DNA of 64,000 nt from positions 16,514,101-16,578,100 of the forward strand of contig NC_092677.1 of NCBI RefSeq assembly GCF_964355755.1. The letters run 5' to 3'. Positions within the stretch are counted from its first letter, which is position 1. The number at the start of each line of letters is the position of its first letter. This stretch comes from Antedon mediterranea. Its lineage: Eukaryota; Animalia; Echinodermata. Below are positions 1,382-27,700 of the stretch, one piece after another. The notes beneath the pieces were generated by a model. It had not been told where the DNA came from. It worked only from the letters and a program-made list of their open reading frames with translations, and ran no database searches. Made by a program: the position numbers and the translations under genes.

Positions 1382-1862
1382 ACTACAGTATATGGTTATA
1401 TATATAAATATAAAAATATTTTAGTAGGAATGTATACATATAGCAAAATTTCAATATATTATTTATACATTTTTGTTCTAATTTTAAAGCTTAACTAATA
1501 GGAGGAAAGTACTCAAATAAAAACAATTAATCTTTAGTTAGACCGGCGTTCTGCAAACTTTTAATTATCTTGGCTCAAAGTTTGCAGAAAGTCGAGTTAA
1601 GCATCAATGAAATCTATATTTATATATGTCTAAAAATTATATTTGCCCAAAAAAAGAATTACAGCAACTCTGAATTAAACACAACAGAAGGAAACTAAAA
1701 AGAAAGTAAAAAGGCCACCAGAAAGATAAAAATATAACTGGATAAACCAAATAAAAAAAGATTTAAAAGACTTTAGTACAATATCAAACCATCCTGCCCA
1801 AAATAGACAAATATGGGAAAAAATCCTGGAAAGCGTAATGTCTGAGAGAAAGTGTTAGAAAG

Positions 1863-1986
1863 TCACACTAAATAAGGTGTGTCTATAACTGAGGCTCCGA
1901 CTCCTACACCGCCCTCATCTACACCATTTGGTTTTGTTCTTACTAAATGTCCTGCAAAGTCGTTCATTACAGCATTTTTTTTGTCA
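1863..1986 (-). CDS. GSS: Extra GSS-like terminal exon B, a candidate alternative last exon of copy 1
   Basis: 124-nt exon with a poly-T/CTAG acceptor like exon A, and the same length and phase. Translates as (S)[40 protein letters not shown]. No other GSS exons were seen between 1987 and 5385. Confidence 0.8.
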
Positions 1987-2912
1987 CTAGAAAAAAAATA
2001 ATAATTTAGAGTTAAAAAAATGTTAGATTATGGCATTTATATTAGAGAAATATTTTTTTTCAAATAATTATGTCCAATGCATACACACAAAACAACTAAG
2101 GCAATTTGCTGTTATCTGTAAATATTATAACATGGAATGGAACATAAACTAAACAGCACTACATACATACAGAAATATTTGTTCAAATATGTCCCATGCA
2201 TACACTACAAAACACAATACAAACAAACAAGGAAGTCAGTATAGTAAGAGTGTAAGCTTGATTCTCCACTTTGATGCAATGCAATGATGTAGGCGCAATA
2301 CAATGATGTAGGCGCAATACAAGTGAGTTGACCAATCATTGTGTTGTGGTCAAATTACTTGATTTTTTAAATAGAATGCAACACACAGTAAATTACAGAA
2401 TCTGTAAATCAAAGTCTCTTGCATACACTATTGAAACTTGCTAGGAAGCAAATGAACTATAAAAAATCTAAAACCTATGGGCGGGCTTTTGCTGATTTTC
2501 TCATGCTTTGACACCACAGGAGCAAATACAGAATAGTTTAAACAGTGCTAACATAAAAAATATTAATATTAGTCAGGGTGGATGAGCACATGTCAATGAG
2601 TGCACCCTGGACCCACCGCGACCCTCTGCATTCTCCCCTGAACGATGTCATATCAAGATTGTTATTTAGTTGCCGCTTTTTTTTTTCTTTGCAAATGAAA
2701 TTTAAAATTTTTTTCAGTGTTGCCATTTTAGCTGCCAAGGCCATTTTGAACCAGTTTTTCTTGCCAGCAGGTCCTATAGCACTGAAAAGCAATATCCCTT
2801 GATGAATGTTGATAATAGCATTGATTAATGGTTATGAAATATATGTCATGCATACAAATTTGATGATGCAACATGTGACATGACAAAAGCATATAGTACA
2901 TACTAAACTATA

Positions 2913-3055
2913 AGCTCTGTCTAAACTATCAAACTTTATGTGACAATGTGATATGCCCATATATAGATGTGATGATGTCATATCACTACCATATTTTTTC
3001 ACCACCAGATTAAGGCACATCACACTCAAACTAGTTTGATAGTGTAGACAGAGCT
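2913..3055. mobile_element. MITE family A (PIF/Harbinger-like)
   Basis: TIRs AGCTCTGTCTAAACTATCAAAC and GTTTGATAGTGTAGACAGAGCT in a TAA/TTA context. Confidence 0.8.
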
Positions 3056-3873
3056 TAATAGTAACCGGTCATACCAAAAATTCTCCCAGGAGGCCTTGTA
3101 TCGCCTGGTAGGGTTGTATGATACAGAATGATATAAAGTACATGTTATTATCATGCCCTATGGGTAACTTATATATTTTTTTTCAAAAACAAGTTAAAAT
3201 AATATAGTTCAACTTTTCATTCATCACAACGTGTTCAATGCAGTGCACAAATCATCACTTATCACAGAGGGATTTTTGGAATAAACCTAATCAGTATTTT
3301 CACATTAAAAATGTATAAAACACTGTACAAATAAATATCACAATAACATTTATATCAAAAAACCCTACAGGCCCTAGTATGCCCAGTATGACCAAGCTCA
3401 TACTAACTAACCATTGAACAATCCAACACTTGACTTTACTTGGTGGTAGTATCCATTGTACACTCGTAACACAGAAATTCAAACACACAAACCGAGACGG
3501 TGTCCAGATTAATATTAATTTTTATTAATTCTATGGCAGTGACCCTTTCATTTAAATTAAGTGCTGTATCTCCACATTCGACAATATTTTCCACGTATCA
3601 TTATGAAAATTCCATAATACAGCATCTCATGTGTGTCACATGTGGTGCCTGTATCATGTACTGTAAAGTTAGGTTTAGTGTTAGGAATTATGGTCTTTGA
3701 TTCTAGGCGATACATGTGAAACACATGTGATACTGTATTACAGAATTTAGATAAAGATACTGGAGAATCTAGGTACACTGACTGTGACAGTACCGAGGAA
3801 TGTGTTCAGCACAATTATTCTATCAACCTTCATAAATAATTATTTTTACATTATATTTATTTGTATCTTCTTG

Positions 3874-4284
3874 CAAAGAACTTATAACACAAGAATCTCC
3901 TGTTCGTCCGAAGCGCGTAACAATTTCAAAAGGCATTGTGGGATAGAATAGAGCTATGGGTGGCGCCATTGTGAGCCATGGAGTAGGGCGCCCGCATCAA
4001 ATTAGAAAGTCAAAATCATAGAGGGGATCTGCTAATGCTCTAGGGGGGGATAGAGTAATTGACTGAGGAGTAGGGCGCCCGCATCAAATTAGAAAGTCAA
4101 AATCAAAGAGGGGATCTGCTAATACTCTAGGGGGGGTAGAGTAATTGACTTCCTAGTTTGGAGGGGGCGCTGCTCCATGCTGTGAAATGGCGTCGCCCAG
4201 TTTGACCTTTTAACCCTGTACTTCCGATACTGTGTTTTGAATGCAAATTGAAGAACAGGAGATTCTTGTGTTATAAGTTCTTTG
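3874..4284. mobile_element. MITE with 32-bp perfect TIRs (P-element-like termini)
   Basis: TIR CAAAGAACTTATAACACAAGAATCTCCTGTTC at both ends. Flanks CTTCTTG and CTTCTTA form a 7-bp TSD with one mismatch. An internal duplication of about 87 bp spans 3980-4150. Confidence 0.8.
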
Positions 4285-4319
4285 CTTCTTATCTATATAT
4301 CTATATTTATTTTTAAAAA

Positions 4320-4641
4320 TCCATTTTGGTCCAATCCGTTTGGTAAAGATATTCTGGCTTCTAATAGATTCAGGGATATGTTACCGTCGTACAAATCCGA
4401 TAGACTCAGTACTAGATCTCTCAGAAGTTATGCAGGCAATGGCTTGGAGAGGCGTAGGTGTAGGACTGAAAGACTAAACAAGTCAACAATACCGTACCTA
4501 GCTAGAATCTTGTAACTTTTTAGGTTTACTTGTAATTTGTGTTTTTCATATTTGTATTTTGATGGAATACTTTTGTAAACATTTTCAGCTTTTGCTGCTG
4601 GTGTGGAAGTTGTTTTAAACCATAAATAAATAAATAATAAA
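4320..4641 (+). mobile_element. LINE 3' end remnant (CR1/L2 group)
   Basis: Frame ends CRTERLNKSTIPYLARIL*, typical of a LINE ORF2 C-terminus, followed by a 3' UTR and an (AATA)n tail. Confidence 0.6.
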
Positions 4642-5385
4642 CCTGGATCTGTAATTAAATTAAAAGATTATTAGTGTTGACTTAGACTTGCCACAAGTCT
4701 GTAGTTACTTTTCTTTATGTTAGCCCACAAGTCATTGTTTCCAATATTACGTGAATTATCACCTAGAACCTAGAAAACAGCGGACTGTATTAAATTTCTA
4801 ATCTCATTTGTTAATAATGATTATCAAGAATTTACCAAAAAGTATTTCTTAAAAAAACAACTTTCCAAAAAGGTTGGAAAGACAATTAACTATAAAAAAA
4901 TATTTTACTATTAAAAATAATTTTTGCATAAAAAAGTTATTTTGGCATTTAAAATATTATGAGTAATCAAAAACAACCTCTATAAATACACAGGTACCTG
5001 TATTTCCAATATTGGTATATATTACTGTATTCACTTATTAAAATAATATTTATTTCTAACAAAAAAATAATAATAATAAAATATTACATATTTCATTTTA
5101 AAAATCAATAAAAGGTTTAGGAGACCAACAATCTTTGAACATTTTCATGAAATTTCTGCTCGAATAATTAAGATATTATTAACAAAATCTTAATAAAAAA
5201 TCCTTTCCCACTCTTAGTAATGTTAATTACCTCCTACATAATCAAATATATTTGCCTGTGAGTCTGACCAAAGCTAAAAACAACGTTTATTAGTACAAAT
5301 AAATGGAATATTAGTACACTTTGGTTATTTTACTCAAGGCATGTATTAATTCCCCCTCTAACTATTAAATGTTACAAAACCATAT

Positions 5386-8300
5386 TCATATCAAGAAAGG
5401 TGTATCAAGTGCCGAGGCCCCCGCAGCGACACCGCCCTCATCGACTCCATTGACTTTAGTTCGTACTAAATGTCCTGAATACTCGTTCAGAACAACATCA
5501 TTTTTGTCACTAGAAAAAGAAAAGTGAAATAGATACAAAAATGGGTTAACCATAGGATTGTGAAGTAGTATTCGCTGTAATTAGCAATTATTCTAACATC
5601 ACTGTTATTTGGAGTGGCACTGTCTTAAACGCTCAACACACAATTTTAGCAACCTCAAGTACAACTTAGCAATCAGAAAAACAAATGAATTCTATAATAT
5701 CAACAACATTCCAAATTTATGACTTAACTGAACTACTCATTCAAACTCAAAGATAGTTATATATAAATATTATATAAAAATCACCAGCGCTGGGCGTACT
5801 TTCACATCAAGTATGAATTCAGTTATCTGGTGTCAAGGTTATTCATGTTTACTGTTGATTGGTCAAAAGGTAAAAAATTGTACGATTTTAAGAAACAAAT
5901 GGCTTCTTAATCCATCGCTCCGAATTAGGAGCCCGAATCAGTTATGGATTCAAATCATATGATTTTGGTGTAAACCAATGAACCCGTTTTCCCACAATAC
6001 TTTTCTCAGGGCACCAGACCGAATTTGGTCATGATGTGAAAGCAGCTTTACACCATACTGTATCTCTCCATCGCTGATAACACATCACTGTAAAACCAAA
6101 ACTGAAGGCAAATATTACTGATTATGGTTATTTATGCTGTTAAAATATTCTATATAATCCCTAGTTGCCTCAACGAATGTGAAGGGAAGAGTTGCCAATA
6201 TTATCAATTAATGTATTGTATATTTATTTAAAACAAATCTGAGTTTAATAATTTGCTCACCTAACCAGTGCTCCAAACATGCCAAACTCTGAGACCATAT
6301 TCTGTAGTTCCGGCAGTTCTGGTGACGACACTACTTTGTAGCCTGGGACAGTGACTGGGAATATTCTATCCATCAGGATATATGCATTTCTTTCTGATGT
6401 GTTCTGAATTCCCAGAAGTTTGGTGCGAATGTCAACTCCATAGATATTATTTCCTAAAATAATACCAACACAATTTAGTAAAGCTCATTTAGAGAAAATT
6501 GAATGCTGAACTTGCACCATTTAGATGTTTCAATGGCAAAAACTACATTTAAAAAAGAGTAAAATTAGTTAATTTTGTTTATCTTAATCTTCTTGGTTAA
6601 AAATTGATGGAATAATAACAAAATAGCAAAAAACTGATTTCAAATAATTAATCAACTGGGAATTAAACTAGATTTTATAAACTACGTTTCACAAGGCTCA
6701 AGTGGTGGATCTGTTTTTGGCCAATGAGAAAAGTTGTGGAGATGTAGAACTGCTTTCACAAAGGAAAAGATAGGTATAAGTTATGTCATCCACAACAGCT
6801 ACAAATCCAATGTTATTAATTCTGTATACAAATAACTGTTCTCTCTTTAGAAAGATATTGCAAACAAAAGTTGCTTTAGTCTCTTACCCCCTCCTTCCTT
6901 GTTGGGTTTCATCACAAATTTTTCTGGTGAGGCGATTGCCATTGCGATGGCCTTGTCACCTTCAGCACCCTAAAAGAATTTGACATTTAAAATACTAACT
7001 TTATAGCACTATTCTGTACTTTTTAAGGCAAATTGTTGATGAAAGATGGGAGGTACATTATGTACAATAGGGATGGAATGGTGGAATTGTCAGGAATCAA
7101 AACACAATGTGAGGGAAGGCAATAGGAAGGTTCCAAGGCCTGAATCCGTTGTCTATATTCCTGGACAAGTATAATTAAAATTGCCTATATATAAATATTA
7201 AACTTGAAGGTGAACTTCAATAGAATCAAAAGAACATTCCTAAATTAATTGCTGTTAAAATTTGTATTAACTTGTGGCAATGATATGAAAGTTTTATTTA
7301 TTTATTTATTTTATTCATTTCCTCCTAAACTGTTCGTCCTAAAGACCCATTCAGACAACAAACAGAAACAAATTTAAAAACCAATGACAACGATAAAAGA
7401 CAACCCAGAAAACCACAACTAACTCTTAGCCCAATTACAGGACTTGGCACCAATAAATGAAAGGTTTGTGTACAAATGTTTATTATTTTCCCTCTGTAAA
7501 GTGGTTATCCATAGACGTAATTATGAGGTATATTACGGTACAGTACTTACAATATCAAGAGAGTATTGGCCAGTGAATGTTGCCCTGATTGCCGCCACTT
7601 TATCTGGATTTGATATGAACCTTTCAACCATCCCTGGCTTAGCTATCGCTTGTTGAACTTTCTTAGTTCCAGCTAAATGTAAAGAAACGTTTGGACAACA
7701 TATTGCACGAGACCTCGCTGCCAACAGTACAGCATTCCACTCCTGCATGAATTAAATATTCTACATCAATAAAATGTGGAATCTATTTGTAAATCAATCC
7801 ATACACAATATCTACAAACTATGGAAAGATTAGACTCTGTCTAGGTAATGTTGATAAAAGATGGTGGTAATTAAAGATTAGAAACAAAATAGGAAAAAAA
7901 GATGAGTTTCGAAAAACCTGGCGTAATGTTATAAGAACCGGAGCACTGACCAATTAGCCATATGACTTGATTTATGAAGGAGCGATGTTATTACTAGTTA
8001 AGTCAAATATTACACACCCTCAATTAGGCCGTACAGTAAAGGTAAAGGTGAGTCCCGTGTTCAATCTGAACGTGGGGGAATGAGCTGTTAGGAACTCATT
8101 GTACTAAGCCTCGGCATTAGGGTGGCCAGTTCCTTTCCACGCCGCCTTTTTTCTCCCTAGTATTTTCAACTAGGTACTTAATTACAGCTGAGTGGACTGG
8201 GAGTTGTCGGAAATTGAACCCAGGTCTATCTGTATGACAGTCAAGTGTCCTAACCACTCGGCTTTCCAACCACTTTACCGTAGAGTAGTGTCTGGATTGG

Positions 8301-11300
8301 AGATGCCAAGCGTAGATGCAGCAAATTAAAAAAAAAAGATATGCCTGTTGCATATTCTATGATTTAAATATACATTTAATACATACCGTCTCAGACTTAA
8401 AATGTGAAGGAATGTAACCATCTCTGTAGTAAACTATGGCAACTTCAGTACCATCACTAATTTTAGGGGAAAAAAAAAAATGTAAAACTAAGAAACTGAA
8501 CAAAGTACTGGGCACTCTTTAATATTCAGCCCATATTGAGCATAGATAACGTAACTGATATCAATAATTAAATCTTTTTCTTGATATGGCATGGTCTGAT
8601 GTTATAATAATTAATTTATAAATATTTGCAAATTAAAAATTCAGGGTGGATTACAATAAAAAAAGAAAAAAGACATTAAAATACAAAACAAGTTACAAGT
8701 TACTCTAAATATTCCATAAGTATGGTATTGTGTATTTTCTTCATCTCTCAGTATGACACCTACACCTCAACAAACAATTAGTTGCACTACGTCTGAGAGA
8801 TCTAGTAGTACTGGTTCTATCAGATTTATATGGCAGTAACGTATGCCTGAATTTAGTAGAAGCCAAGATAAATTTACCAAATGCTAAAGCTTTCTTTACA
8901 TGTACTGGTATTGGGAGAGTTGACTGTATTTCTAAAACTATCTGTGCTAAAGTCCATTACATGTATAACATTAGGGACTTTACGAAACATGACAGTTAGG
9001 GGAGGACTTCTTGTGTTCGCTAGAGTGTAAAATTATTTCTAATCGTTCCTCGTAAACGGGAAAATGGCAACTTTATCGTCCTCAAAAAGACGACAGAATT
9101 TCACACTAAGCTCTGCTTAATTTGTTAAGGTTCGTGCATAAATTATTCATGAGCACCGTCCTGTGGCTTCCTGTCCTGTTTCTTAAAATTGACTTGTATA
9201 GGATTTGTCATATTTATATATACATACTATACAGTACTTACACTATTAAGCGCCTATCATCTGACAGTTTTCCTTTTGAACCAATGTCCAATAGGGTAAT
9301 TCTCTTTACTGGAATGTCCAAATTGATTTTCTTAACTTCAAACTCTAAAAGTCTTTGGTCAAATACATTTCTTTCTGTAGTTGAGACAACAAAGACGATA
9401 GCTGCCCTGCATTTAGATGAAATATACAGCATTAGGAACCAAAACAAAACGTCATTTTTCATAATTTACTATAAATCGAAATAGAAGTTCAGACAGGTGG
9501 GAAAAAAGATTTAATGTCACAGACACCTATTAACACCTCCTCCAGTTCCGGCTCTAACGCGGCAAATACAATGGCGTCAAAATGTTTCGATTTCATGACA
9601 CACATGCAGCTCACGCCAATCCTCTTACTTGATATGGTCGTAGCTCCTTGATGAGTCATGAAAATGCTAATGCTGTATGCGCAATTTGACGCAAGCCTGA
9701 ACTGGATTCAGACCCGGAGTAGGTGTGAAAAAAACTTTAAAGCCCTGGACCCGTCACATATGAAACTTACTACAGAAATTTTACTACTCAGACTGCTTCA
9801 GCAGTGAATCTGTTGCCTAATTACATATGGAATACCTGGATACACACTCACTATATTTACTGAGCGTGAAAACTTAGAAAGACTGTTTGAACATAATATT
9901 AAAAATAATAATGCACATACTTGGGTGTGTCGTAAACTTCCCATGCTTTTACAAATGCTTTTGAGTACTTTTCTATGTGATTATTTGTCGGCAGTGACTT
10001 TTCTACATCACATCGTCCACCAAGAAGTTGGGTAGTGTATCTATAAATAAAATAGCATTTTGTGATAGTGATTACTTATAGGTCATCCACGTAGTCATAG
10101 TGGAGGTACCAAGAGCCAAGGTGATGCTATCAAAAGGTAACAAGGTTTGCATAGTATGACAATTTTGTAGATAAACAGAAAAACACAATGATGAGAGGCA
10201 TGTTTTTTTTGTTCCGAGATGTCCAGAGATGTTAATGTGTGCACATGTATTGACCTACAATTAAAGTAACCAATGTAATCGATTTATATAGATGAGACCC
10301 CCTAAGTACTAAAGTTAAATTTGTTGAGACCCACTAACCTACTTTTATTTACCTATGTACTAGAGTTAAATTTGTTGTGAGACCCAATAAGCTACTTTTA
10401 TTTACATATGTACTAGAGTTAAATTTGTTGCTACTTTTATTTACCTATGTACTAGAGTTAAATTTGTTGTGACAGCCCCCAAGCTACTTGCTATAGTGTT
10501 TATCTCAACCATCTTTGGCAGCATCTCATCTGTCGATCCATCCAACAGGTAATCTGATCTTAGAAGTGCTAAAACGCCGGCCTAGAAACAAAAACACACT
10601 TTTAGGTCCCTGGCATTTGAATTGTCTTCTGCATAATTATCATTTTTACTGTACAGTAAAATGTTACAATTGCAATACATTCTTATAATTGTAATCATTG
10701 TTATAATTATCAGAATCACTTTTGATACCATCATCATCATGTATTTTAACTGAAAAATTAAAATCAGTAATACTTTAGTCTTCTAAAGCCTACAATAGCA
10801 AACTTCACAAAACTCATGTTTAAAAACTCAGAGTTTGCTACATTTTGGAGAAATGTCAGGTTTATAATATATATATACATATAATGAGACATTATATAGC
10901 GCTATTTCGTGAAGATCAGAGCGCTTTGAGTGTTAGTTGACTATTAAAATTATCTAGAAAGGCTAACCAAAGGCAAGAAATAGGCTAACAAAAGACAACT
11001 CGTTAATGACAATAAAAAAAATAAAACAAAGATGATTCAAACACCACCCCTATCTACACAATTAAGTTTAAAAGTCCAGTTCCTGGAGGTTGCCACTTTG
11101 CTTACCTCACATAACTACACAACTGTCATTTCAAACCTTAGGAAGAAGCTGTAAAGCACCTACCTTTTGCAAATTAGTTATCTACAGCTTAAAGATTTGT
11201 CATTTAGTTCCCGGTCTTCAACCCGTCCACAGCGCTCTCGCTGCAAAGAAGTTGGGAGCATCCGCAAAGCCGCTGGAGCATGCGCAAAGCATTGTTGTTA

Positions 11301-12092
11301 TGCAGTCATTATGGGCAAGCACTATAATATGGTTGATTGATAGGGCACTTACTTCATCATGTGACTCACAATTGTCCAATCAAATGACTGGAATCTCTTT
11401 AGGTGTTATATAATCTACACTAGCAAACTTTGGCAACTTGTTATTACCAAACTTGTTGTTTGCTAAAGTTTGCAAAGTACATGCTACTGTAGACTAAGCT
11501 TACCAGATGGGTAAAGCAGCCTCAATATCTGTGTACTTACATCAGCAATACCTTCTTCTAATATTTTTTCCAATATCTTCAACAGCCTGCCAGTGAAATC
11601 GTCAGATACTGCTGCTCTGAAACAATTTTCAATAAAAAAAAGATTCAGTATTGATTATAGTCCGGTTGAATAAATAACACAACCGCATACATTCAGTATG
11701 AATCATGGTGTCCCAAAGGAGGGGTTCTACTTTACTTAAGACATATGGATCAGCTAGCTGGTTTACAAACGTGTCCTGTTCAACAAGAAAGAAATATTGT
11801 TTTGTGATTCTTACGATTTCAATGTTTCTCGTATAAAATCATAGTCTTTTGAAATAAGATACAACAGCTCATTAATGTACATTTGCCCGTCTGCAAGTTG
11901 GTGAAAATATTTCCTTGGTATCGGTGCTGGCAGAAGAGCATGTGGCCCACACATCACAGTATCTGAAGAAGTTGGATTCTCAAAGGTCCGAAAAACGAAA
12001 CCATGTGAGACAGCGCAGTCTTTTGATTGGTTGACAGCATCTGACAGCAGACTATCAGATAGAGGAAGTTTAACAGGAGGATCCAATTCCAT
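5386..12092 (-). CDS. GSS: Glutathione synthetase-like ATP-grasp ligase, copy 1, with proximal last exon A (about 478 aa)
   Basis: Ten GT-AG exons join in frame: 11815-12092, 11541-11616, 10445-10581, 9921-10040, 9242-9406, 8387-8456, 7551-7742, 6888-6969, 6261-6453, 5386-5509. Eukaryotic GSS motifs are present: [59 protein letters not shown] and GGVAAG...DTPF. Confidence 0.93.
8036..8270 (-). mobile_element. tRNA-derived SINE with (ACCTTT)n tail
   Basis: Minus strand has AGCCGAGTGGTTAGG (box A), GGGTTCAATTTCC (box B), a CCAGTCCACTCAGCTGTAATTAAGTACC core and an ACCTTTACCTTT tail. Confidence 0.75.
10301..10470 (-). repeat. Tandem copies of the GSS copy 1 coding-exon-3 end plus splice donor
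   Basis: CTACTTTTATTTAC(C/A)TATGTACTAGAGTTAAATTTGTTG occurs three times, plus a partial fourth copy. Confidence 0.85.
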
Positions 12093-12629
12093 TTCTATTA
12101 CAGAATGAAGAATAAAAAAGTTAAATCATTTTTCTATATTAATTAAAATTTAAACAGTAGTGCTCTGTGTGCTTGTAAGCAACCTATTTCGAAAGATCTT
12201 TAAGAACATTAAAAATATCATTTCAAATCAGACACATTCCCACGCATTTAAACTTAAATTGAAAATACACCATAAAGTACTGAAATCAGTGGTTTATCTG
12301 TACATTTTATGTATAGTAATTCTAAAAAATATATATAAGTTAAATTAACCACTAATATGTTAATAACATCATCATAAAACCCTACCAGGTGATACTGGGC
12401 CTATCGCTGATACGCTTTTGCTATCGTAATTGGTTCTGGTCAATACTTGTTACATATATGAATGTTTTTTTAGGCCTAATGTATAATTTTTTTTTTCAAT
12501 TTATTTTACAGGTGATTGCAAGAAGTTTGTGAATGTGTGCCGAGACCTGTAAAATTTAAAAAAAAAACAATTTAAATATAAAAATATCCACACGGCAAAA
12601 GCATACCTTGCGCCATCAAATCGGTAAGT

Positions 12630-12875
12630 ATGTAAGCCAATGGGTACGAGTTAGCCAAAAAATGAGTACGAGTATAAGCCAAATAAGGGACCATGGGTAC
12701 GAGTAAGCCATGGAAATACTTACGTGTACGAGTTTGTATGGGTACGGATTGGTTTGGGTACGGGTTAGCCACAGTGGGTACGAGTTGACCAATTATTTGG
12801 GTACGACTCGAGTTAGCCAAGTTGGGTACGAGTTGGCATGATGGGTTCGTTTGGGTACGGTACGGGTTGCCCAGC
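12630..12875. repeat. GGGTACGAGTTAGCC short-repeat array, probably a subterminal arm of a DNA transposon
   Basis: About ten GGGTACG(AGTT) motifs in the same orientation. Confidence 0.6.
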
Positions 12876-12915
12876 ACCCAACAGATTAGTAGCAGGCTAG
12901 GCCTTCTACTTTTAG

Positions 12916-13455
12916 GGGTGTCTGATCATTTCGGCCGCCAGTCATTTCGGCCGCCGGTTATGGAATTGCCAAATTCATGAAACGCCAAAAAGGACAAAAT
13001 ATGTATTGTTAATTTCGGCCGCCAGAATTGTAATTATTCTTGAATATGTATGACACGCCATGTGTGTTAAAATGTTAATATTTTACTAAATAGTGTATTA
13101 TTAAGCCGAATCGGCGGTCTTCAATTCCAGAAACAGCAAGCGATATTTATAGCGTGCACATTGCCATCACTACAGTGAATATTAATGATATTTTTTTAAT
13201 AAGAAGGAGTTGATGCTGAAGTTTTTAGCCCATTGCACAACTGATCTCTAGTTTAAATGATGATAATTCTCTGTGTGGCGTTCCATTTTTTTTCACTGTA
13301 ATTCTGTACAGTTATTTCTGGCTATTTCAATTTGGCGCGCCATACCTGGCGGCCGAAATGATCATGCCATATTTTGTCCTTTTTGGAGTTTCATGAATTT
13401 GGTCGTTCCATAACCGGCGGCCGAAATGATTGGCGGCCGAAATGCACTGTGACCC
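12916..13455. mobile_element. MITE with long (about 90-bp) imperfect TIRs
   Basis: Arms GGG...CATTTCGGCCGCC(x2)GGTTATGGAA...CAAATTCATGAAAC.CCAAAAAGGACAAAATATG are mirrored at the other end. TTTTAG is directly repeated at 12910-12915 and 13456-13461. Confidence 0.85.
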
Positions 13456-13615
13456 TTTTAGGCGCCTAGGCTAGTTAGGCCTCTGGCCGGCAAAAGACTA
13501 GTCTGGGGCCAGCCTAGCCTAGCTAGGCGGCCCTAGAGGCTAGGTCTAGGCCTAGGCTAGGCCTCTAGTAGGCCTAGACTATATTAGGGCGCTATAGTAC
13601 GTAGGCTTTACTTAC

Positions 13616-13740
13616 TTCTTTTTAAGGCACAGAGCCTACTATAAACATATAATAGCCTTACTTAAAAAATAAATATAAAACTCTGCAGAGTCATGTGTTT
13701 TTTTTTTATTGTTATTAATGTAGCGCCCTCTTCAGTAAGT
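13616..13740 (-). promoter_or_regulatory. Probable non-coding first exon and promoter of GSS copy 1
   Basis: An acceptor lies 2 nt before the ATG, so an upstream exon is required. A GTAAGT donor sits at 13615-13610, followed by a TAGGCCTA-rich tract. A similar donor for copy 2 lies at 20287-20282. Confidence 0.45.
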
Positions 13741-14603
13741 AAACTTTTTTAATACAATAATTTTCTATTATTATTTTCGTATACTATTATATCTTGACAC
13801 AGATAATATATATATATATATAATTACATACTGCAATAAATCGTAATTTTCACTACGATGAAATCTTAAAATAAACAAAATGACACTTTGCATAAAACTG
13901 AAAGTAAAGTTTAGTCTCAGCTTCAATATTATGTGAAATAGGCTTATTGGTTAACTTTATCTTTTTGGAAAATCTTTTATTCCAAATACGGATGATCATT
14001 AACTTTAATTTCTGTAAAATTCTAGGCCCTATTCTAGTAATGATTAAACGTTTTTATTTATTATTTAAAGAATATTATATTGTTTTACGGTAACGTGAGC
14101 CTATTGTTTGAAAGTCTTTTTAGGCACTATATCATTTAATATTTTAAACATTTTAAATAACATGTTAGTAACAGGTTTCACACGTAATGCACCTAGAAAA
14201 TATTGTTTAACTATAACAAGAAACTATTTATTGATTGGATCATGCAAAACTTGAATATATTAGTTAATTATAATAATTATTATAATAATTTTTTACTAAA
14301 TGAAAATACAACATGCTAACATTGAGGAGGGGTTAATGTTAACTATACTCAAAAACTCTGACTTCATTTCTGGCTGTTTTACACTTTATCGTTTTGATGA
14401 TTTATCTTGTTGCTTTTCTTTTTTATTTCTGTTGAGCTGAGCTGATTTCCACAGCATTGCCATGAATAATATTCTAATTAAATATATACGTATTTGTTTT
14501 AGTTGAATAGTTTTGATACCGGGTAAGCCTACTCTTACAGATTATTATGTAGTAACATTCAGGAAAAACAAAAGAAACCCGTTACTTAGATTTACGATTT
14601 GAT

Positions 14604-17600
14604 TTAAAATTCAACCAAGAAAGGCGTATCTGAAATCGAGACTCCGACCATTATACCACCCTCATCCACACCGTTGGGTTTCGTTCGTACTAAATGTCCT
14701 GCAAACTCATTCAATACAACATCATTGCCATCACTATATAAAAATGACACATTTTTATTCATGTAAATCATCAAGAAACTATTGTAAAAAAACGTAGTTT
14801 TATTAGTATTACGTACATTTTCATGGATGATATAATTACGCAGATTTTCGTCATGGAGCTAAAGCTTGGTTCCAACTAGGATGCAACTCAAGGACGTAGA
14901 CGCAACGTAAGTGAGTTGACCAATCACAAGCGATGGATTATTCGAACTGTCGCTTGTCATTGGTCAACACATTTGCGTTGCGGTTACGCCATTGCTTTGC
15001 GTCCTAGTTGGAACCAAGCTTTAGTAATCGGTCAGAATGATGTTTGTTACGGTAGTGTGTACTTAGCATAGTATATATAGACATACAATTACTTTAGATT
15101 ATGGCAAAATCCGACCAACTACGTTTTATATTCCTTGTAAATAATATATACTGTAATAAAAAGAAATAAGCTGATGGTAATATTTCTCACCTAACCAGAG
15201 CTCCAAACATACCAAACTCTGAGACCATATTCTGTAGTTTCGGCAGTTCTGGTGATGACACTACTTTATAGCCTGGGACAGTGACCGGGAATATTCGATC
15301 CATCAGGATATATGCATTTCTTTCTGATGTGTTCTGAATTTCCAGGAGTTTGGTGCGAATGTCAACTCCATAGATATTATTTCCTAAAATAATACCAATA
15401 CAAAAAAACAAATGTCAGTTTTAGTTAGTTGAGGCTTATTCCTCACCAATGACAGAATGACTAACATATTGCAAAAGTGTGAAACTAGAATGTTAATCTT
15501 CTCAGATATTAAAATTCTTGATAAATTTTGTCAAATAAAATTAGCAAAATGTAATAAAGAGAAGTAGAGTGAATCAACATATCGGTATTTCCTTTTCTGA
15601 GACTATGTGGTTGTGATTAACGTAGTGACAACGCTTGGTCCTCCTCATGGACGCAACGCAAGCGGCTGGCTCAACGTGTCGACGACGCATACATGCCGTA
15701 ATAACATATTGCGTGGGTACCGACGACGTTTCCTAAACTTTTATTCAACACTCGTTTCTGCTTGGGCGTACGTTGCAATCGACGTGATGGTTCAACTTCT
15801 TGTCGTAAGAGGGGGATGGAAAAAATGATAGAACAGTATTTCTTCTACTAGTCGGAAACAAGCTTTATACAATTCCTAGTGGTCTCCACCCAACCACCAC
15901 ACCAATCTGTATAGACATTATCTTAGTTCACAGTAAAACGTATTTTACCTCCTCCTTCCTTGTTTGGCTTCATCACAAAGTTTTCTGGTGAATTAATCGC
16001 CATTGCGATTGCCTCATCGCCTTCAGCACCCTAGAAACAAATTGAAAGAACTACAAGAAACTGCAAGATAGTATCTTTATTGTATTATAACAAATTGCTG
16101 ATGTAGTATGAGAAAGGTATTATATGAAATGAGCAATAGTTGGGTAGAAAAGCGAAGACATGAGTTACAAAACCATCTTATTATCTTTTCGGAAAATGAC
16201 TAAACTACAATTAAATTCCTAAACAAAGCGGCTACTGCACATCACTCCATAGGCATAGCTAGCAACCATGTTGTAATTGTATTTCTATGTAATTATCCTT
16301 GCCAAAAGGTTATATGTCCAGTTTCGTTATCCGAATATAATCGCCGTCTTACTTTGAATAATTTTTAACAACATGGATCACGGTACTTACAATATCAAGA
16401 GAGTATTGGCCAGTGAATGTTGCCCTGATTGCCTTCACTTTATCTGGATTTGATATGAACCTTTCAACCATCCCTGGCTTAGCTATCACTTGTTGGACTT
16501 TCTTAGTTCCAGCTAGGTGTAACGAAACGTTTGGACAGCATATTGCACGAGACCTTGCAGCCATGAACACAGCATTCCACTCCTATATAAATTAAATATT
16601 ATTATTATTATTTATTTACAAAATACTGTACGTATTGTTTATGAATTAATTTAATAAAATGAATAATTATATACATACCATCTCAGACGTAAAATGGGAT
16701 GGAATGTAACCATCTCTGTAGTAAACTATGGCAACTTCAGTACTATCACTAATTATAAATTAGTAAAAGGAAATCAACAGTATTACTCTTTAAATATCGT
16801 TTAACCAGCCAATCAATGGTTATTACAATTAATCTATGTTGGTTCTTTAATAAAAATGGCAGCCATTTTTGTTATTGAAATTTGAAGTAGATAAACGTTT
16901 GTGGTTTTTCAAAATAAGCATTGGTTCAGGATTTAAATTTCTAGATTCAGATTGGTACATATTGATAGAGCAAAGAACAAAAAAAAATCTATATTCTAGT
17001 GCCATCTCGCAATAAGACATAAATTGATGATATAAGGATGTACCTACGCTGCTGATTGTCATATGTAAAAACTTTACTTTGGGTTTTGTTGAACGCTCGA
17101 TTTAGACATAAAATCAACAGGCAATGGGAACTTACAAGACAATGCGGATTGTTTTGCAATTGTCAGATTGTGGAAGTCTAAGCATATGTAAGGCGACAAT
17201 AATTACTTGCTTTGGCACTAAATTTTAACTCTGACACTTACACTATTAAGCGCCTATCGTCTGACAGTTTTCCTTTTGAACCAATGTCCAATAGTGTAAC
17301 TCTCTTTATTGGAATGTCCCAATTAATCTTCTTAATTCCAAACTCTATTAGTCGTTGGTCAAATATATTTCTTTCTGTACGTGATACAACGAAGATAATA
17401 GCTGCCCTGTTTTATACGAAATACACAGCATAAATTTTCAGTTTAAATAAAATTTAATTTAAATTTTAAAAAATAGAGAACGACAAAACACATTTAGCAA
17501 GAAGTAAAATGTTCTAACTAAATAGTACAGTGTTTTACTCGTAAATGCTAAAATTATAACTTGAAAGGTTGTTTATTGTTTTTCTTGAAATTATATCATC

Positions 17601-19492
17601 ATTTTCTTTTTCTTTTTACAAAACGAAAATAAAGCGAATTTAAAAGTTGACATACTTGGGTGTGCCGTAAATCTCCCATGCTTTTACAAATGCATTTGAA
17701 TACTTTTCTATGTTATTGTTTGTCGGCAGAGACTTTTCAACATCACATCGTCCACCGAGAAGTTGAGTAGTGTATCTATATATAAATTATTTATTTGCTA
17801 TTACTTTTGTGTTATATTTGTCTTTTCCCATTATTTTATTACTATTTCCCATGTTTAGTAGACTATAATTATTTGTGATGATTCTATTTTCTGAGGAGAA
17901 TACTCATTTACTTATGTACTGGAGTTAAATTTGACTGGATAGCCCCGGCGCCACTTGCAATAGTGTTTATCTCAACCATCTTTGGCAGCATCTCATCTGT
18001 TGATCCATCCAAAAAGTAATCTGATCTTAAAAGAGCTAACACTCCGGTCTAGAAAAAAAAAATTCTTTTAAATTATTATCATCTGCCATCATCATCACTA
18101 TTTCAGTTCTGAAGGTATTCCAATATTTAAACCTTTAAGCATTGTACTTCTCTAATTAATTTCTCGTAATTCACCTTCCCTGATTTACTCAACAAAATAC
18201 AATCTATTTATTCATTCTTTTCATACGCATTCAAGAGCGAGTACCTCGCCAATTACAGGATGGATCAACTATTTTAATAATTGATCTTGCTTGTTAAACT
18301 AAGTCTCATTTGATTATTAGGGAGTGGAGTTGAAAAAGTCGTGAGTTACATCCCTGGCCTGGGATTAGAAGGTACGTTAACGTTAAGTAGCTACAGCTCC
18401 ACTTCGTGCCTCACTATCAATAAAGCAAACTTCAATTTTGGCAAGACAATTTCCAAAAGTTCGACAAATCTAGTTTGCCAACTCGAGCAAACTCCGAGTT
18501 TGTCAAGTAAGGTTTGCTAGTGATGTACAGTTGACGAACTTCAGCAAACTGCAACAATCATACACATCTTTAGTTTGCAACTCGAGCAAACTCCGAGTTT
18601 GTCAAGTAAGGTTTGCTATTGATGTACAGTTGACGAACTTCAGCAAACTGCAGCAATCATACACATCTTTAGTTTACAACTCGAGCAAACTCCGAGTTTG
18701 TCAAGTAAGGTTTGCTATTGATGTACAGTTGCAATCATACACATCTTTAGTTTGCAACTCGAGCAAACGAGTTTATCAAGTAAGGTTTGCTTGTGATGTA
18801 CAGTTGACGAACTTCAGCAAACTGCAACAATCATACACATCTTTAGTTTTCAACTCGAGCAAACAAAAACGTATACTTACACCAGCAATATCTTCTTTTA
18901 ATGTTGTTTCTAATATCTTCAACAGCCTGCCAGTGAAATTGTCAGATACTGTTGCTCTGAAACAATTTAACATGAAAATATTCGATTCAACGTCAATCGT
19001 ATCTATTTTTAGATATTTTTAGTCGCGTGGACGCGACTCTATAGCTCACTATGTCGGTCGGTCTGTCGGTCTGTCGGTCTGTCTGTCGGTCCGGTATCAC
19101 TATGCGTTTTAGCACGCAACTTATGGCTGTTGGCCTTGTTTAGTACTTGAGAGCTATGTGTTAAGTTTTATACTCATATTTTGAGGACAAATATTATTTT
19201 TATGTAATTCTTACGATTTTAATGTTTCTCGTATAAAATCATAGTCTTTTGAAATAAGATACAACAGCTCATTAATGTATATTTGAACTTGTGCAAGTTG
19301 GTGAAAATATTTCCTTGGTATCGGGGCTGGCAGAAGAGCATGTGGTCCACACATCACAATATCTGAAGAAGTAGGATTCTCAATGGTCCGAAAAACGAAA
19401 CCATGTAAGACAGCGCAGTCTTTTGATTGATTGTTAGCGTCCGACAGCAGACTATCAGGTAGAGGAAGTTTAACAGGAGAATCCAATTCCAT
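14604..19492 (-). CDS. GSS: Glutathione synthetase-like ATP-grasp ligase, copy 2 (about 480 aa)
   Basis: Exons 19215-19492, 18881-18956, 17912-18048, 17656-17775, 17242-17406, 16679-16748, 16391-16582, 15949-16030, 15191-15383, 14604-14733. Exon lengths and phases match copy 1 except the last exon (6 nt longer), and the frame is intact. C-terminus is GHLVRTKPNGVDEGGIMVGVSISDTPFLVEF*. Confidence 0.93.
14863..15020. mobile_element. MITE family B (PIF/Harbinger-like)
   Basis: TIRs AGCTTGGTTCCAACTAGGA and TCCTAGTTGGAACCAAGCT with TAA/TTA flanks. Related copies lie near 2254-2450 and 25615-25749. Confidence 0.8.
18470..18863. repeat. Tandem repeat, unit about 99 bp, about 4 copies
   Basis: Unit CTCGAGCAAACTCCGAGTTTGTCAAGTAAGGTTTGCT...TACACATCTTTAGTTTGCAA, with an internal deletion in one copy. 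Intronic in GSS copy 2. Confidence 0.9.
19016..19141 (+). mobile_element. Helentron-associated (HINE/DINE-1-like) non-autonomous element
   Basis: Starts in a T-run with the hairpin AGTCGCGT-GG-ACGCGACT, continues into a (GTCG/GTCT)n microsatellite and ends CTTGTT. Confidence 0.7.
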
Positions 19493-20629
19493 TGCTAAAG
19501 CAGAAAAATGAAACACCCCTCTCAATAAGAAAAGCACTCTATCTTAAACTATTGATTAATAATCGGGCAAACATGACACATTCTTGTTAAAACAGAAACC
19601 ATTTATACAAGAGTGCGGAATAAGGCCGAAATAAGTTTGGAGACAAACTTAAATGTTCTTATGGTCATCCCACTTTCTTCCACTAAGTCTTTTTACATTA
19701 GCCATTAATTGTTCAAAACGATATTGCGCAATGTGTTCAGTTTCAACAATTGGAACATAACAATATGTTTACGACGATGATTTTGTTTAAATTATAAATA
19801 TAACATCATATGTTACTGATTAATGGTTATGCTAATTAAAGTGAACTCATTGAACTGAAACGATTGTAACTGCTATACCATTGAATGTGTTTTATGTTTA
19901 TGTGACCAATGCCACTTATAAAAGTGTGTTAGTAAACATTGTGCAAAAGTGTAGCATGCAAGTGACATTTCACTAATAAATAAAATATTAAAATAATAAT
20001 TTAACCTTACTTAGATATGTGTATTTATTTATAATATTATATTTACAATTAATTCACATATACTAATATATTAAAGTTGAAATATGAAAATATCATGCTG
20101 CAGTAGTGTAAAGCTAATCCTACACTTACCGATACACACTGTAGATACTTAATTTCAATTGTAATGTACATGGGCATAAAGGTTTGTAGACTCTGTTATT
20201 CAATTAGTTGGAGAGGGCAGAAGCTTTGTCGACAATTAGATTGCTAAATATACTATTTTAACAAACTATTTCTACAACTGTACTTACTTTCTTTATTTAA
20301 AAAGCGCCCATTCAGAGGAATATAATATGCCATATTTGAAGATGTGCCCCGAACTCAAAAAAGTTCCTAAAAGAAACAAACAAAATACTAATTCAATATA
20401 CACAAAGGTCCAGAGAAAAATGCTCCAGACGTAAGAGGCGCTTTCGTTTTATTCCATTCATGTAGACCTCTAGTTGTAATAGCATAATGAGGTTCCAACC
20501 GGTAGAAGCAGCATTTCATCTTAATTCTTTCTGATCTATACAGTATATCCCATTTTTAAATTAAATCTACTATTCATATCGGTTGTGTGTACAGCGTAGC
20601 TTCCTCCAAATTAACCATAATAATGACAT

Positions 20630-24758: not shown

Positions 24759-27700
24759 ATGTCAAGAAGAAGGTATGCTATAGTTGTATTATTATTTTGT
24801 ACACGTACATTCAGTATTTGGAAAGTGTGCATGAAAAAAATAGGAAACCCAAAAAGGTTGAAAACTTAAAAATTTACCTTAAAAAAAATGGCCTAAAAAG
24901 TACCCATTAAAGAAAATAACATCTTGGTATACAACTTTATAACTTCCCCTATCTCTCCCTCCCCTATTCCTTTCTCATACAGTATCTGTGAAACCAGTAT
25001 ATGTAATTGATAAGTAAATTTCTAGGCTCATTTTTATTTTAGTGGAAGATTGCAAGCAAAGCAGAGGGTAGTGCAAGCTCCCTGTACCATCACAGAAGAA
25101 GACTTTAAGATCTGCACTAGAAAGCGCAAGGCTAAAGACATGATTGGAGAGGTGAGATATACTAATAATTAGTTGGTATGCCTTATTACTTGAAGTCTGT
25201 TTTTTGCTTAGACTAGCCAAATCTAAATTTATACCACCCAAATGTTTTATAAGATTTAGTGTCAGCTTAGGACCAGGACCAGTCAGCTTGGTGTATTCTT
25301 GTGCGCTCATCCCATGAAACCGCTTTACAAATTTCTAATGCTGACCTTATCCAACACCCACAAAATTACTTTATTTGATTGTTAGGCAAATTTTATTCAC
25401 AAGTTTAATGATTTAATTTTGTTTTAAGGCGGATATCAGAAGTATGGAAATTCAGAAGAGAAGACAGCAATTTCAAATACAGGTATAAATAATATTTTGT
25501 TTGTAATATCAACTTCCATAATTTACTTATTGTTCAAGCACTAACCTGCCCTTTGACATCGGGTTACAAAACGGTCAATCACCAGATCATACTACAGGTA
25601 GAACACCTATTAAAAGCTTGGTTCCAACTAGGTCGAAATGCAAATATGCTAGCGCAATTCAAATAAATTGACCAATCACTTTGGCTTATCTGAACTGCAT
25701 TTGCATTGCGGTTACATTGGCGCATTGCGTCCAAGTGGGAATTAAGCTTTAGGGAATACCTACAAAACCCAACAAAGTGTACCTTAATAGGGGTTTTCCT
25801 TAAATAGGAGTTTGTAATTATGTTGCACCTTGTTTTATTCGCTTCAAAAGAGGGTTCATACTGTAGTGTACTGTATATTAATCATTTAATTAATTTTTCA
25901 TTAGACTTGCTGGATCCCAATCTCCGAGACAACTGGTGTACCAACTAGTACAATCATCCCTGCGCAGTTTAACCCTAACCCACCTACAACACCGGAGTTT
26001 TGTGAGAAGAGCTCGATATTTCGTTTCAAGAACCTCTTCCCGACCCCATCTACGCTTAGGTCATCACCATTACCAACGTTAAACTGGGCGGATCATCAAG
26101 ATGTGTGGCGGTTCATGCTCGAGCAGGAAAACTCATACATGAATAAATGCGACGGGAACTACCTACATAAACACCCTAATCTAGAAACTCGTATGCGAGC
26201 TATATTATTAGATTGGTTAATAGAGGTATGACCATCGTTTGTCTGAATATTATTGAAATTATTAGAAATACAACTTCTCATTTTAAACAATTGCATAATA
26301 TTTTTGTTGGATTTTAAATTATTACATTTCGAATTAATCATGTTCAACATCAAGCCATCTGAAGTCAGGGAGGCATGCAATCAAGGGGATCCTAAATTTT
26401 GAAATTTGCTGTGCAAAAGATAGTACATTAGGTTAAGTTCTAGGCCCCACTATTTCAAAACAAAAGACACACATTTGGCACTGGGATATTTAGGCCTTAC
26501 TATAACTTAGCCTATAGAGGCATTTGTTAGTCATTGTATGCTGAACTATGGCAAACATGTACCCAAAATACAGTACCTCCACACATTTATTCCTGTTATT
26601 ATTTTCCTATATTCATCTATAGGTTAGTGAAGTTTACAAATTACACAGGGAAACCTATTACCTAGCTATGGACTTTATTGATAGGTTTTTATCGGTTAAG
26701 ACTAATATTCCAAAGAATAAACTGCAACTTATAGGAATCACAGCATTATTTGTTGCTGCCAAATTAGAGGTAAGATTTTCAATTTATATAGTCTTTACAC
26801 ACACTCGTTATCGAGCAGTCAAGCTTGAAAAACATCCAGATATGTTTTAGCTGGCTTTGCTTAAAAATATAACCTTCCATCTTTCACCTAATAAATTTAT
26901 TTACCACATTGCACATTCATTATTTGTATACCATTACACCATACACTCTCTCAAGAATCAGCTAACATTCTTCAGTAAATGAACGTGTGTGAACTGATAT
27001 TATGTTTCTATTATTGCAGGAAATCTATCCACCAAAACTTACAGAATTTGCGTATGTAACTGATGGTGCTTGTACAGATTCTGAAATACTAGACCAAGAA
27101 CTTGTAATGTTAAAGGTAAAGGGCTTGCATACTATTCTCTAACAGGTTTCTCCAATTAAAGACAGTTGTTCAGACCATGTGGGTCTGTTCTCTACATTCA
27201 GTATATTGTTCTGTACTACTATTTTTTTGCCCCATTAAAAACCCAGATCCAGTTCCTTACATTATATCTCATTTAATAACAGATGTAGGTAAAGACAATA
27301 AAGGCTCCTTCACGCTCTGCTATTTACCCTTGTTGGTTCCTACCCACCAAAGTTAGTGATGACCCACCCATGAAACCAACTTACCCTGCTAGTAACTAAG
27401 CCCCAACAGGGCCTAAAGAGAGCTTGGTAAGGGCCTAGGATCTACGTCTTTTGAATCCCACAAAATATTTCAAAGAATGAAGTAAGGAAGCCTGTCCCCA
27501 CATGTGCACAATGAATTAGCATGGAGGAAAAATAGGCTTTCAGCTAAACTAGACAAATAATGATGTATTTTTTATCATATAATTTGTATCTTCATTACAG
27601 GCCTTAAACTGGGAGTTAACTCCAGTTACAGCCAATGCCTGGCTGAACACTTATCTTCAATTGTGCAATGTAGATGAAATTATTCAAAATAATTCCAACT

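Follow-up and report, generated by a model that had tools for sequence, protein, structure and literature searches.

In animals glutathione is treated as invariant, its homologues having been described from plants. The closest described counterparts of the locus analyzed here are duplicated glutathione synthetases (GSS, or GS). In legume homoglutathione synthetase (hGS; soybean structures 3KAJ/3KAK/3KAL) and in rice OsGS2, a duplicate with a changed Ala-Ala pair is kept beside the canonical form. Here we describe a GSS locus of the crinoid Antedon mediterranea, which lies in a 64,000-nucleotide stretch of DNA (hereafter the window; NC_092677.1, positions 16,514,101 to 16,578,100). Two tandem GSS genes would yield three proteins with different versions of the Ala-rich loop at the glycine acceptor, two of them through alternative last exons. 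An initial annotation, made from the letters of the window, had proposed that the locus may make glutathione together with one or two noncanonical gamma-Glu-Cys-X tripeptides.

The role of this loop has been addressed in several enzymes. The loop adjoins the glycyl end of glutathione, and its main-chain amides bind the glycyl carboxylate (PMC2845819), in agreement with its placement in the initial annotation. Trypanosoma brucei GS, solved with glutathione bound, has Val541-Met542, with Met at the position of human A462 (PMC2845819). In nematodes, Clade 1 and Clade 2 GS have two loop residues changed and still prefer glycine, and Clade 3 GS-like effectors have lost canonical activity (PMC5919673). 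The wild-type fission-yeast enzyme (Ala-Thr) uses glycine only; with Leu-Pro alone it shows some use of serine, an 8.6-fold preference for glycine and no use of beta-alanine, and with Leu-Pro plus Met-Val it uses beta-alanine 1.2-fold over glycine (PMC3473041). The rice paralogue OsGS2 has a preference for serine that was not traced to particular residues (PMC6508825), and human mutants of D458, in the same loop, are altered in glycine binding and cooperativity (bioRxiv 10.64898/2026.06.09.730884).

On the minus strand of the window, self-comparison and splicing of open frames gave two intact 10-exon GSS genes in tandem. In the order of the transcribed strand, these are copy 2 exons 1-9, terminal exon C, copy 1 exons 1-9, and terminal exons A and B. 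The predicted proteins are labeled P0001 (copy 1 with exon A), P0003 (copy 1 with exon B) and P0002 (copy 2); P0004 and P0020 are the proteins of Anneissia and Asterias. The features are as follows, run X1 being a sequencing run described below.

20288..20333, minus strand: putative small upstream coding exon of copy 2 (MAYYIP...), from the RefSeq model; N-terminus of P0002 placed at 20333, lower border inferred from phase
15191..19492, minus strand: copy 2 GSS exons 1-9; all GT-AG, open frame, match to P0002, AlphaFold model
19492-19215, 18956-18881, 18048-17912, 17775-17656, 17406-17242, minus strand: copy 2 exons 1-5
16748-16679, 16582-16391, 16030-15949, 15383-15191, minus strand: copy 2 exons 6-9
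17912..18048, minus strand: copy 2 exon 3, with the segment NTIASGAGA of the dipeptide pocket (Gly for human S151, Ala for human F152)
14604..14733, minus strand: terminal exon C of copy 2, loop GGIMVG; from sequence and a run X1 contig ending at 14733
6261..12092, minus strand: copy 1 GSS exons 1-9; match to P0001 and P0003, intron 8 joint in run X1
12092-11815, 11616-11541, 10581-10445, 10040-9921, 9406-9242, minus strand: copy 1 exons 1-5
8456-8387, 7742-7551, 6969-6888, 6453-6261, minus strand: copy 1 exons 6-9
5386..5509, minus strand: alternative terminal exon A of copy 1, canonical loop GGVAAG; joint 5509/6261 in run X1, RefSeq isoform X1
1863..1986, minus strand: alternative terminal exon B of copy 1, loop GGVGVG; joint 1986/6261 in run X1, RefSeq isoform X2

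Every intron of both copies has GT-AG borders, and splicing gives full open frames of 478 aa (copy 1 with A), 478 aa (copy 1 with B) and 480 aa (copy 2 with C). The two copy 1 proteins are identical over their first 438 residues and differ only in the last 40, the acceptor loop included. They match the RefSeq A. mediterranea proteins XP_071958071/72 (isoform X1, exon A) and XP_071958074 (isoform X2, exon B), and copy 2 matches XP_071958547, which has 16 additional N-terminal residues. A protein search with exon 1 gave 2 matches among 64 candidates, both under the NCBI name Antedon mediterranea glutathione synthetase-like. Exons A, B and C (124, 124 and 130 nt) each have an AG acceptor, phase 2, GHLVRTK, DTP and a stop. 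The tandem genes and the three intact, same-phase terminal exons of the initial annotation are thereby borne out; the interchangeability it gave to all three exons holds for A and B on copy 1, but C lies upstream of copy 1 and ends copy 2. The window contained no fourth GSS terminal exon by tblastn, and no further Antedon GSS proteins were among the best 120 of two protein searches, one of which missed three holothurian rows of its own alignment; the genome may thus carry a third, canonical GSS elsewhere. A 44-bp segment common to the regions upstream of B and C is a dispersed repeat.

Contigs from sequencing runs provide joints for copy 1. Five runs cover the region, none recorded as RNA; we guess that run X1 is RNA, although it covers introns too, and runs X2-X5 behave as DNA of one sample. 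Contigs were compared with positions 1780-7000 at 97% likeness, and the results below refer to the 15 of 46 joints that were listed. Among these, run X1 contigs join 5509 to 6261 (exon 9 to A, depth 43), 1986 to 6261 (exon 9 to B, depth 28.2) and 6452 to 6887 across copy 1 intron 8 (depth 43.3). All three have CT..AC ends and match the predicted GT-AG borders, and none of them was among the joints listed for run X3, which behaves as DNA. The short side of both terminal joints is 21 letters, under the 31-letter bridging rule. A branch produces this length here, because the first 9 bases of A and B are identical and 9 letters of the exon 9 contig are left unplaced. Both joints come from one study. 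The comparison over the whole region listed 15 of 626 joints, every one a repeat.

The single donor of copy 1 exon 9 is joined either to A or to B, both of which have a stop and a poly(A) signal of their own, according to the run X1 contigs, the RefSeq isoforms X1 and X2, and the hexamers: AATAAA lies 95 nt past the stop of exon A, and ATTAAA and AATAAA lie 298 and 772 nt past that of exon B. For copy 2, the match of a run X1 contig (depth 10.9, also over 15277 in exon 9) breaks off precisely at the acceptor of exon C, 14733, the contig having 137 letters more, from which we infer the exon 9-C joint. Contig depth reflects expression poorly. A 983-base contig of run X1 (depth 11.9) spans the intron upstream of exon B at 1960-2940; it may come from RNA that was not spliced, from an exon A with a long 3′ end, or from DNA within the run.

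The varied loop pair, which is Ala-Ala in A, Gly-Val in B and Met-Val in C, aligns with human A462/A463 and with the Leu-Pro of soybean hGS, and the Met of exon C falls at the same place as that of trypanosome GS. We surveyed the family in 207 search-ranked proteins of at least 400 aa from two ranked searches (210 less 3 short fragments; the echinoderm rows are redundant). The GGVAAG loop is present in 158 of the 207. Ala-Ala is found in 154 of 189 non-echinoderm sequences versus 4 of 18 echinoderm sequences, and a bulky residue at the A463 position in 4 of 189 versus 11 of 18. The loop is GGVGVG in Anneissia, as in exon B, GGIGAG in Amphiura (two clusters), GGLTVG in Asterias rubens and A. 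amurensis, GGLMTG in Patiria, GGLAMG in Acanthaster, GGVVVG in Holothuria and GGVAAG in the sea urchin. Thus, seven of the eight other named echinoderm species have non-Ala-Ala loops only, among the proteins found, and within that set loss of Ala-Ala appears to be echinoderm-wide. Among sea stars, the loop differs in each of three genera (LTV, LMT and LAM), a pattern closer to relaxed constraint than to a single new pocket. No alternative-ending isoform is listed in the protein clusters of sea stars or Anneissia.

The echinoderm proteins without Ala-Ala include P0020, P0122, P0133, P0134, P0009, P0135, P0006, P0010, P0127 and P0004. Elsewhere, hymenopteran GSS loops are GGIVAG, GGIIAG or GGVVMG, that of a cricket is GGVVFG, and annelid and brachiopod loops are GGVATG (P0149, P0161, P0165, P0176, P0183, P0082).

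The three terminal exons are old and under purifying selection. Their pairwise silent divergence (dS) is 0.90-1.08 and their replacement divergence (dN) 0.19-0.22, with dN/dS about 0.2 and purifying selection in all three pairs (Fisher P at most 5.4e-4). Exons 1-9 of the two copies have dS 0.23 and dN 0.059 (dN/dS 0.25, P = 1.3e-12), the silent divergence of the terminal exons being significantly greater (Fisher P at most 3.5e-4). Of 17 terminal positions kept in at least 80% of the 189 non-echinoderm proteins, four vary among A, B and C, namely the three loop residues and position 472; with three of the four in the loop, the variation is focused and does not represent decay. Eight of the nine introns cannot be aligned between the two copies (scores no higher than the shuffle maximum), which, despite the gene-body dS of 0.23, suggests an old gene duplication whose exons 1-9 were homogenized later by gene conversion. 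Tests for gene-conversion tracts between the gene bodies gave P = 0.054, 0.17 and 0.35, none significant. The terminal exon would have duplicated long ago, with gene bodies that are younger or were homogenized later.

In trees, the two Antedon bodies group against Anneissia (support 100/98), and among replacements polarized by Anneissia 22 are derived in copy 2 versus 14 in copy 1. The terminal-exon tree placed exon A outside a group of Anneissia, B and C (support 95/83, falling to 86/83 with one row fewer). That group was lost without the loop columns, and an all-Antedon clade was acceptable by an approximately unbiased (AU) test (P = 0.38), so exon A as outgroup was not upheld.

All three proteins have both eukaryotic GSS Pfam domains (PF03917 and PF03199, GSH_synth_ATP and GSH_synthase) at 335-347 and 94-97 bits, over the cut-offs, and the AlphaFold model of copy 2 (pLDDT 92.4) matches human GSS 2HGS in Foldseek (TM 0.89, rmsd 1.9). 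Human residue numbers beyond the cited passages are read from the alignment with human GSS, and those residues are given the roles that they have in the human enzyme. The equivalents of the catalytic and Mg/ATP-binding residues R125, E144, N146, K305, K364, E368, E425, R450 and K452, and of G464, are intact in all three proteins, as are the gamma-glutamyl pocket residues E214, N216, Q220, R267 and Y270. The G-loop glycines are kept, with N/K at human Q366/R367 in all crinoid proteins (KPNKEGGG instead of KPQREGGG, 4 of 207). Ser occupies the human Q211 position in both copies. The human L449 position is Val in all crinoid exons, as in soybean hGS, a state confined to crinoids and holothurians (9 of 207); the residues before RTK are Leu-Val in A, B and C versus Met-Val in hGS, a half match. 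Crinoids and holothurians also share a loss of the G-loop Gln-Arg (to NK and QL).

The copies differ in the gamma-Glu-Cys pocket, where the human enzyme holds the dipeptide through a hydrogen bond from S151 and a contact with F152 (PMC2845819, PMC6297838). Copy 1 keeps S151; copy 2 has Gly at 151 and Ala at 152 and keeps the other five. Polarized by Anneissia, S151G, L152A, V155I and T156Q are derived in copy 2. Codons 151-165 hold 7 replacement and 0 silent differences between the copies, a clustering that is not significant (P = 0.075). Ala at 152 is found in 2 of 207 proteins and Gly at 151 in 20 of 207, including gar GSS. Other GSS with Gly at S151 are P0142 of the abalone Haliotis rubra (AAGAGS), P0158 of Lingula (ASGCAA) and P0076 of gar (AAGCGG). 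P0142, a low-quality model, has both the Gly-Ala pair and an odd loop, SGLRTG, in parallel to copy 2.

The functional readings that follow draw at every step on sequence and the literature. The one we put forward, at about even probability, is that all three isoforms use glycine as acceptor and diverge in kinetics and regulation, against a general relaxation of constraint. All three proteins would join glycine to gamma-glutamyl-cysteine, and the loop would retune glycine affinity, cooperativity and side activity with no product switch. Exon A would give the textbook enzyme, and exons B and C would have been kept for their different kinetics, with separate 3′ UTRs that would make tissue- or stage-specific control possible. 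In favor are the intact active-site residues of all three proteins, the binding of the glycyl carboxylate by main-chain amides of the loop and the Met of T. brucei GS (PMC2845819), the glycine preference of nematode (PMC5919673) and fission-yeast (PMC3473041) enzymes with other loops, the scarcity of Ala-Ala in echinoderms, and the effect of D458 mutants on glycine binding and cooperativity (bioRxiv 10.64898/2026.06.09.730884). Constraint on the loop may have been relaxed across echinoderms, possibly owing to the large amounts of free glycine that echinoderm cells hold. Since only variant loops were found in seven of the eight other named echinoderms, the more economical assumption is that such loops make glutathione, the alternative being that a large part of the phylum relies on a different compound. 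Several points weigh against this reading. The differences among A, B and C focus on the loop (three of the four varying conserved positions), and an Ala-Ala exon kept beside variants after a dS of about 1 implies that the exons are not equivalent. Outside echinoderms, few proteins have a bulky residue at the A463 position (4 of 189), and the variants listed for 23 GS include none (PMC2845819); the Val at L449 of all crinoid exons is at a site needed together with Leu-Pro for beta-alanine use in fission yeast (PMC3473041). Canonical paralogues in other echinoderms may be missed by our candidate-limited protein searches, and in the literature searched, mostly non-subscription, we found no mass spectra proving that crinoids, sea stars or sea cucumbers contain canonical glutathione.

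The focus on the loop and the long retention of the Ala-Ala exon would also fit an acceptor switch, which we consider possible but rather improbable: A would give glutathione, and B and/or copy 2 would ligate another amine (beta-alanine, serine, alanine or taurine) and so make a glutathione homologue in vivo, in the manner of legume hGS and rice OsGS2. The similar contig depths of the two copy 1 spliced forms (43 versus 28, a crude measure) and the hGS-like Val at L449 point the same way, as do the serine and beta-alanine use created by loop changes in fission yeast (PMC3473041) and the serine preference of OsGS2 (PMC6508825). Yet neither B nor C is Leu-Pro, and although the varied residues do align with the Leu-Pro of hGS, which the initial annotation took as the acceptor switch, Leu-Pro alone did not switch the fission-yeast enzyme. 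Assayed non-Ala-Ala enzymes mostly prefer glycine (PMC5919673, PMC3473041). Loss of Ala-Ala alone is no predictor of analogues, as the T. brucei, nematode and fission-yeast enzymes show, and non-Ala-Ala loops are common in echinoderms; the step from loop to analogues is not supported in the form that the initial annotation gave it, although an analogue may still be made. A switch would also require that Anneissia and six more variant-only echinoderms lack or under-make glutathione, and an animal glutathione homologue is unreported in the literature searched. In its fullest and similarly tentative form, splicing would choose the main thiol, with A giving glutathione, B a gamma-Glu-Cys-X homologue and copy 2 a third peptide; crinoids, sea stars, brittle stars and sea cucumbers might run on homologues, since most echinoderm GSS found lack Ala-Ala. 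Routine thiol assays cannot tell such homologues from glutathione.

For copy 2, a shift of donor is unlikely, though several observations fit it. S151G/F152A would open the dipeptide pocket to gamma-Glu-X with a larger or non-cysteine second residue, giving another tripeptide, with the Ile-Met-Val loop as part of the remodeling. Both residues contact the dipeptide (PMC2845819, PMC6297838), the four changes are derived in copy 2, Ala at 152 is rare, the abalone protein combines the same pair with a changed loop, and a changed donor pocket is known in nematode effectors (PMC5919673). Unlike those effectors, copy 2 retains E214, N216, Q220, R267, Y270 and R125; moreover, Gly at 151 occurs in gar GSS and 19 other proteins, the replacement cluster is not significant and the abalone model is of low quality. 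A further possibility, that exon B and copy 2 are redundant, or in decay, and serve no role of their own, is very improbable and largely refuted by sequence constraint. The lower contig depth of copy 2 (10.9) and its 22 derived replacements against 14 would agree with decay, but dN/dS is about 0.2 in the terminal exons and 0.25 in the bodies, frames and splice sites are intact after a dS of about 1, and the joints are present in RNA-like contigs.

Loop-variant GSS duplicates are already known in legumes, rice and nematodes, and the Antedon isoforms are already in RefSeq without comment. The Antedon proteins share both Pfam domains, the fold, and the catalytic and gamma-glutamyl residues with eukaryotic GSS such as human 2HGS, and differ in having three loop versions from one locus, KPNKEGGG, Ser at Q211, Val at L449 and, in copy 2, S151G/F152A. 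They share the Val before RTK with soybean hGS, but the variants are Gly-Val and Met-Val instead of Leu-Pro, and one arises by splicing and not from a separate gene. Nematode Clades 2 and 3 are likewise animal GSS duplicates with variable loop residues, and the Gpa-GSS22 loop, GGISVG, is near the GGIMVG of exon C. Clade 2 still prefers glycine, whereas Clade 3 proteins are secreted effectors with a rebuilt glutamate pocket and no canonical activity; the crinoid proteins keep the five glutamate-pocket residues (PMC5919673). The initial annotation knew of no such system in animals, which agrees with the lack of an animal homologue in the literature searched but overlooks the repurposed GSS paralogues of cyst nematodes (PMC5919673). 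Terminal-exon swapping in GSS, echinoderm-wide loss of Ala-Ala and an animal glutathione homologue are undescribed in that literature, which included few subscription journals and held no papers on crinoid or echinoderm GSS or on alternative exons of invertebrate GSS. Copy 1 with A versus copy 1 with B is a natural controlled experiment on the function of the acceptor loop. Should a homologue be made, animals would have a thiol not described from them before, with product choice by splicing and reason to re-examine echinoderm glutathione measurements; if not, the locus would still show that the Ala-Ala rule is no guide to substrate and that echinoderms leave this loop unusual freedom.

In arthropods, pairs of GSS isoforms (RefSeq X1/X2) offer another parallel, in that one gene apparently swaps an active-site segment through alternative exons, and the S151 position is Gly in one form, as in copy 2. 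The arthropod swap, known from protein pairs only, differs in concerning the internal dipeptide-pocket region (about residues 120-165) instead of the terminal loop. The pairs P0014/P0100, P0017/P0096, P0019/P0091, P0030/P0121 and P0016/P0073 differ almost only in a 40-45 residue segment (NTIASSFGG versus NTIASGFGW/H), and both segments are present in P0013, P0050, P0114 and P0144. In insects and springtails, and probably in copepods, the two segments apparently come from mutually exclusive exons that have been conserved as a pair. We found no paper on arthropod GSS alternative exons in the literature searched.

Elsewhere in the window, an exon with a cyclin N-terminal domain (Pfam match) lies beside exons resembling URI1 (25905-26231, plus strand, and 35326-36040, minus strand). 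We take the cyclin to be cyclin E-like and its neighbors, which had no Pfam match for URI1, to be URI1-like; CCNE1 and URI1 are presumably adjacent in human. At 40566-40877 (plus), 50857-54131 (minus) and 58744-60278 (plus) lie exons similar to those of mitochondrial ribosomal protein L3 and of a NudC-domain protein, with no Pfam match, together with a death-effector-domain-like open reading frame below the Pfam cut-off. Tandem repeats lie at 42275-43552, 37270-37896 and 18471-18864, with units of 51 bp, about 68 bp and about 99 bp, the last in copy 2 intron 2. The 51-bp units are about 99% identical, and the array has open frames of 456-498 codons on both strands.

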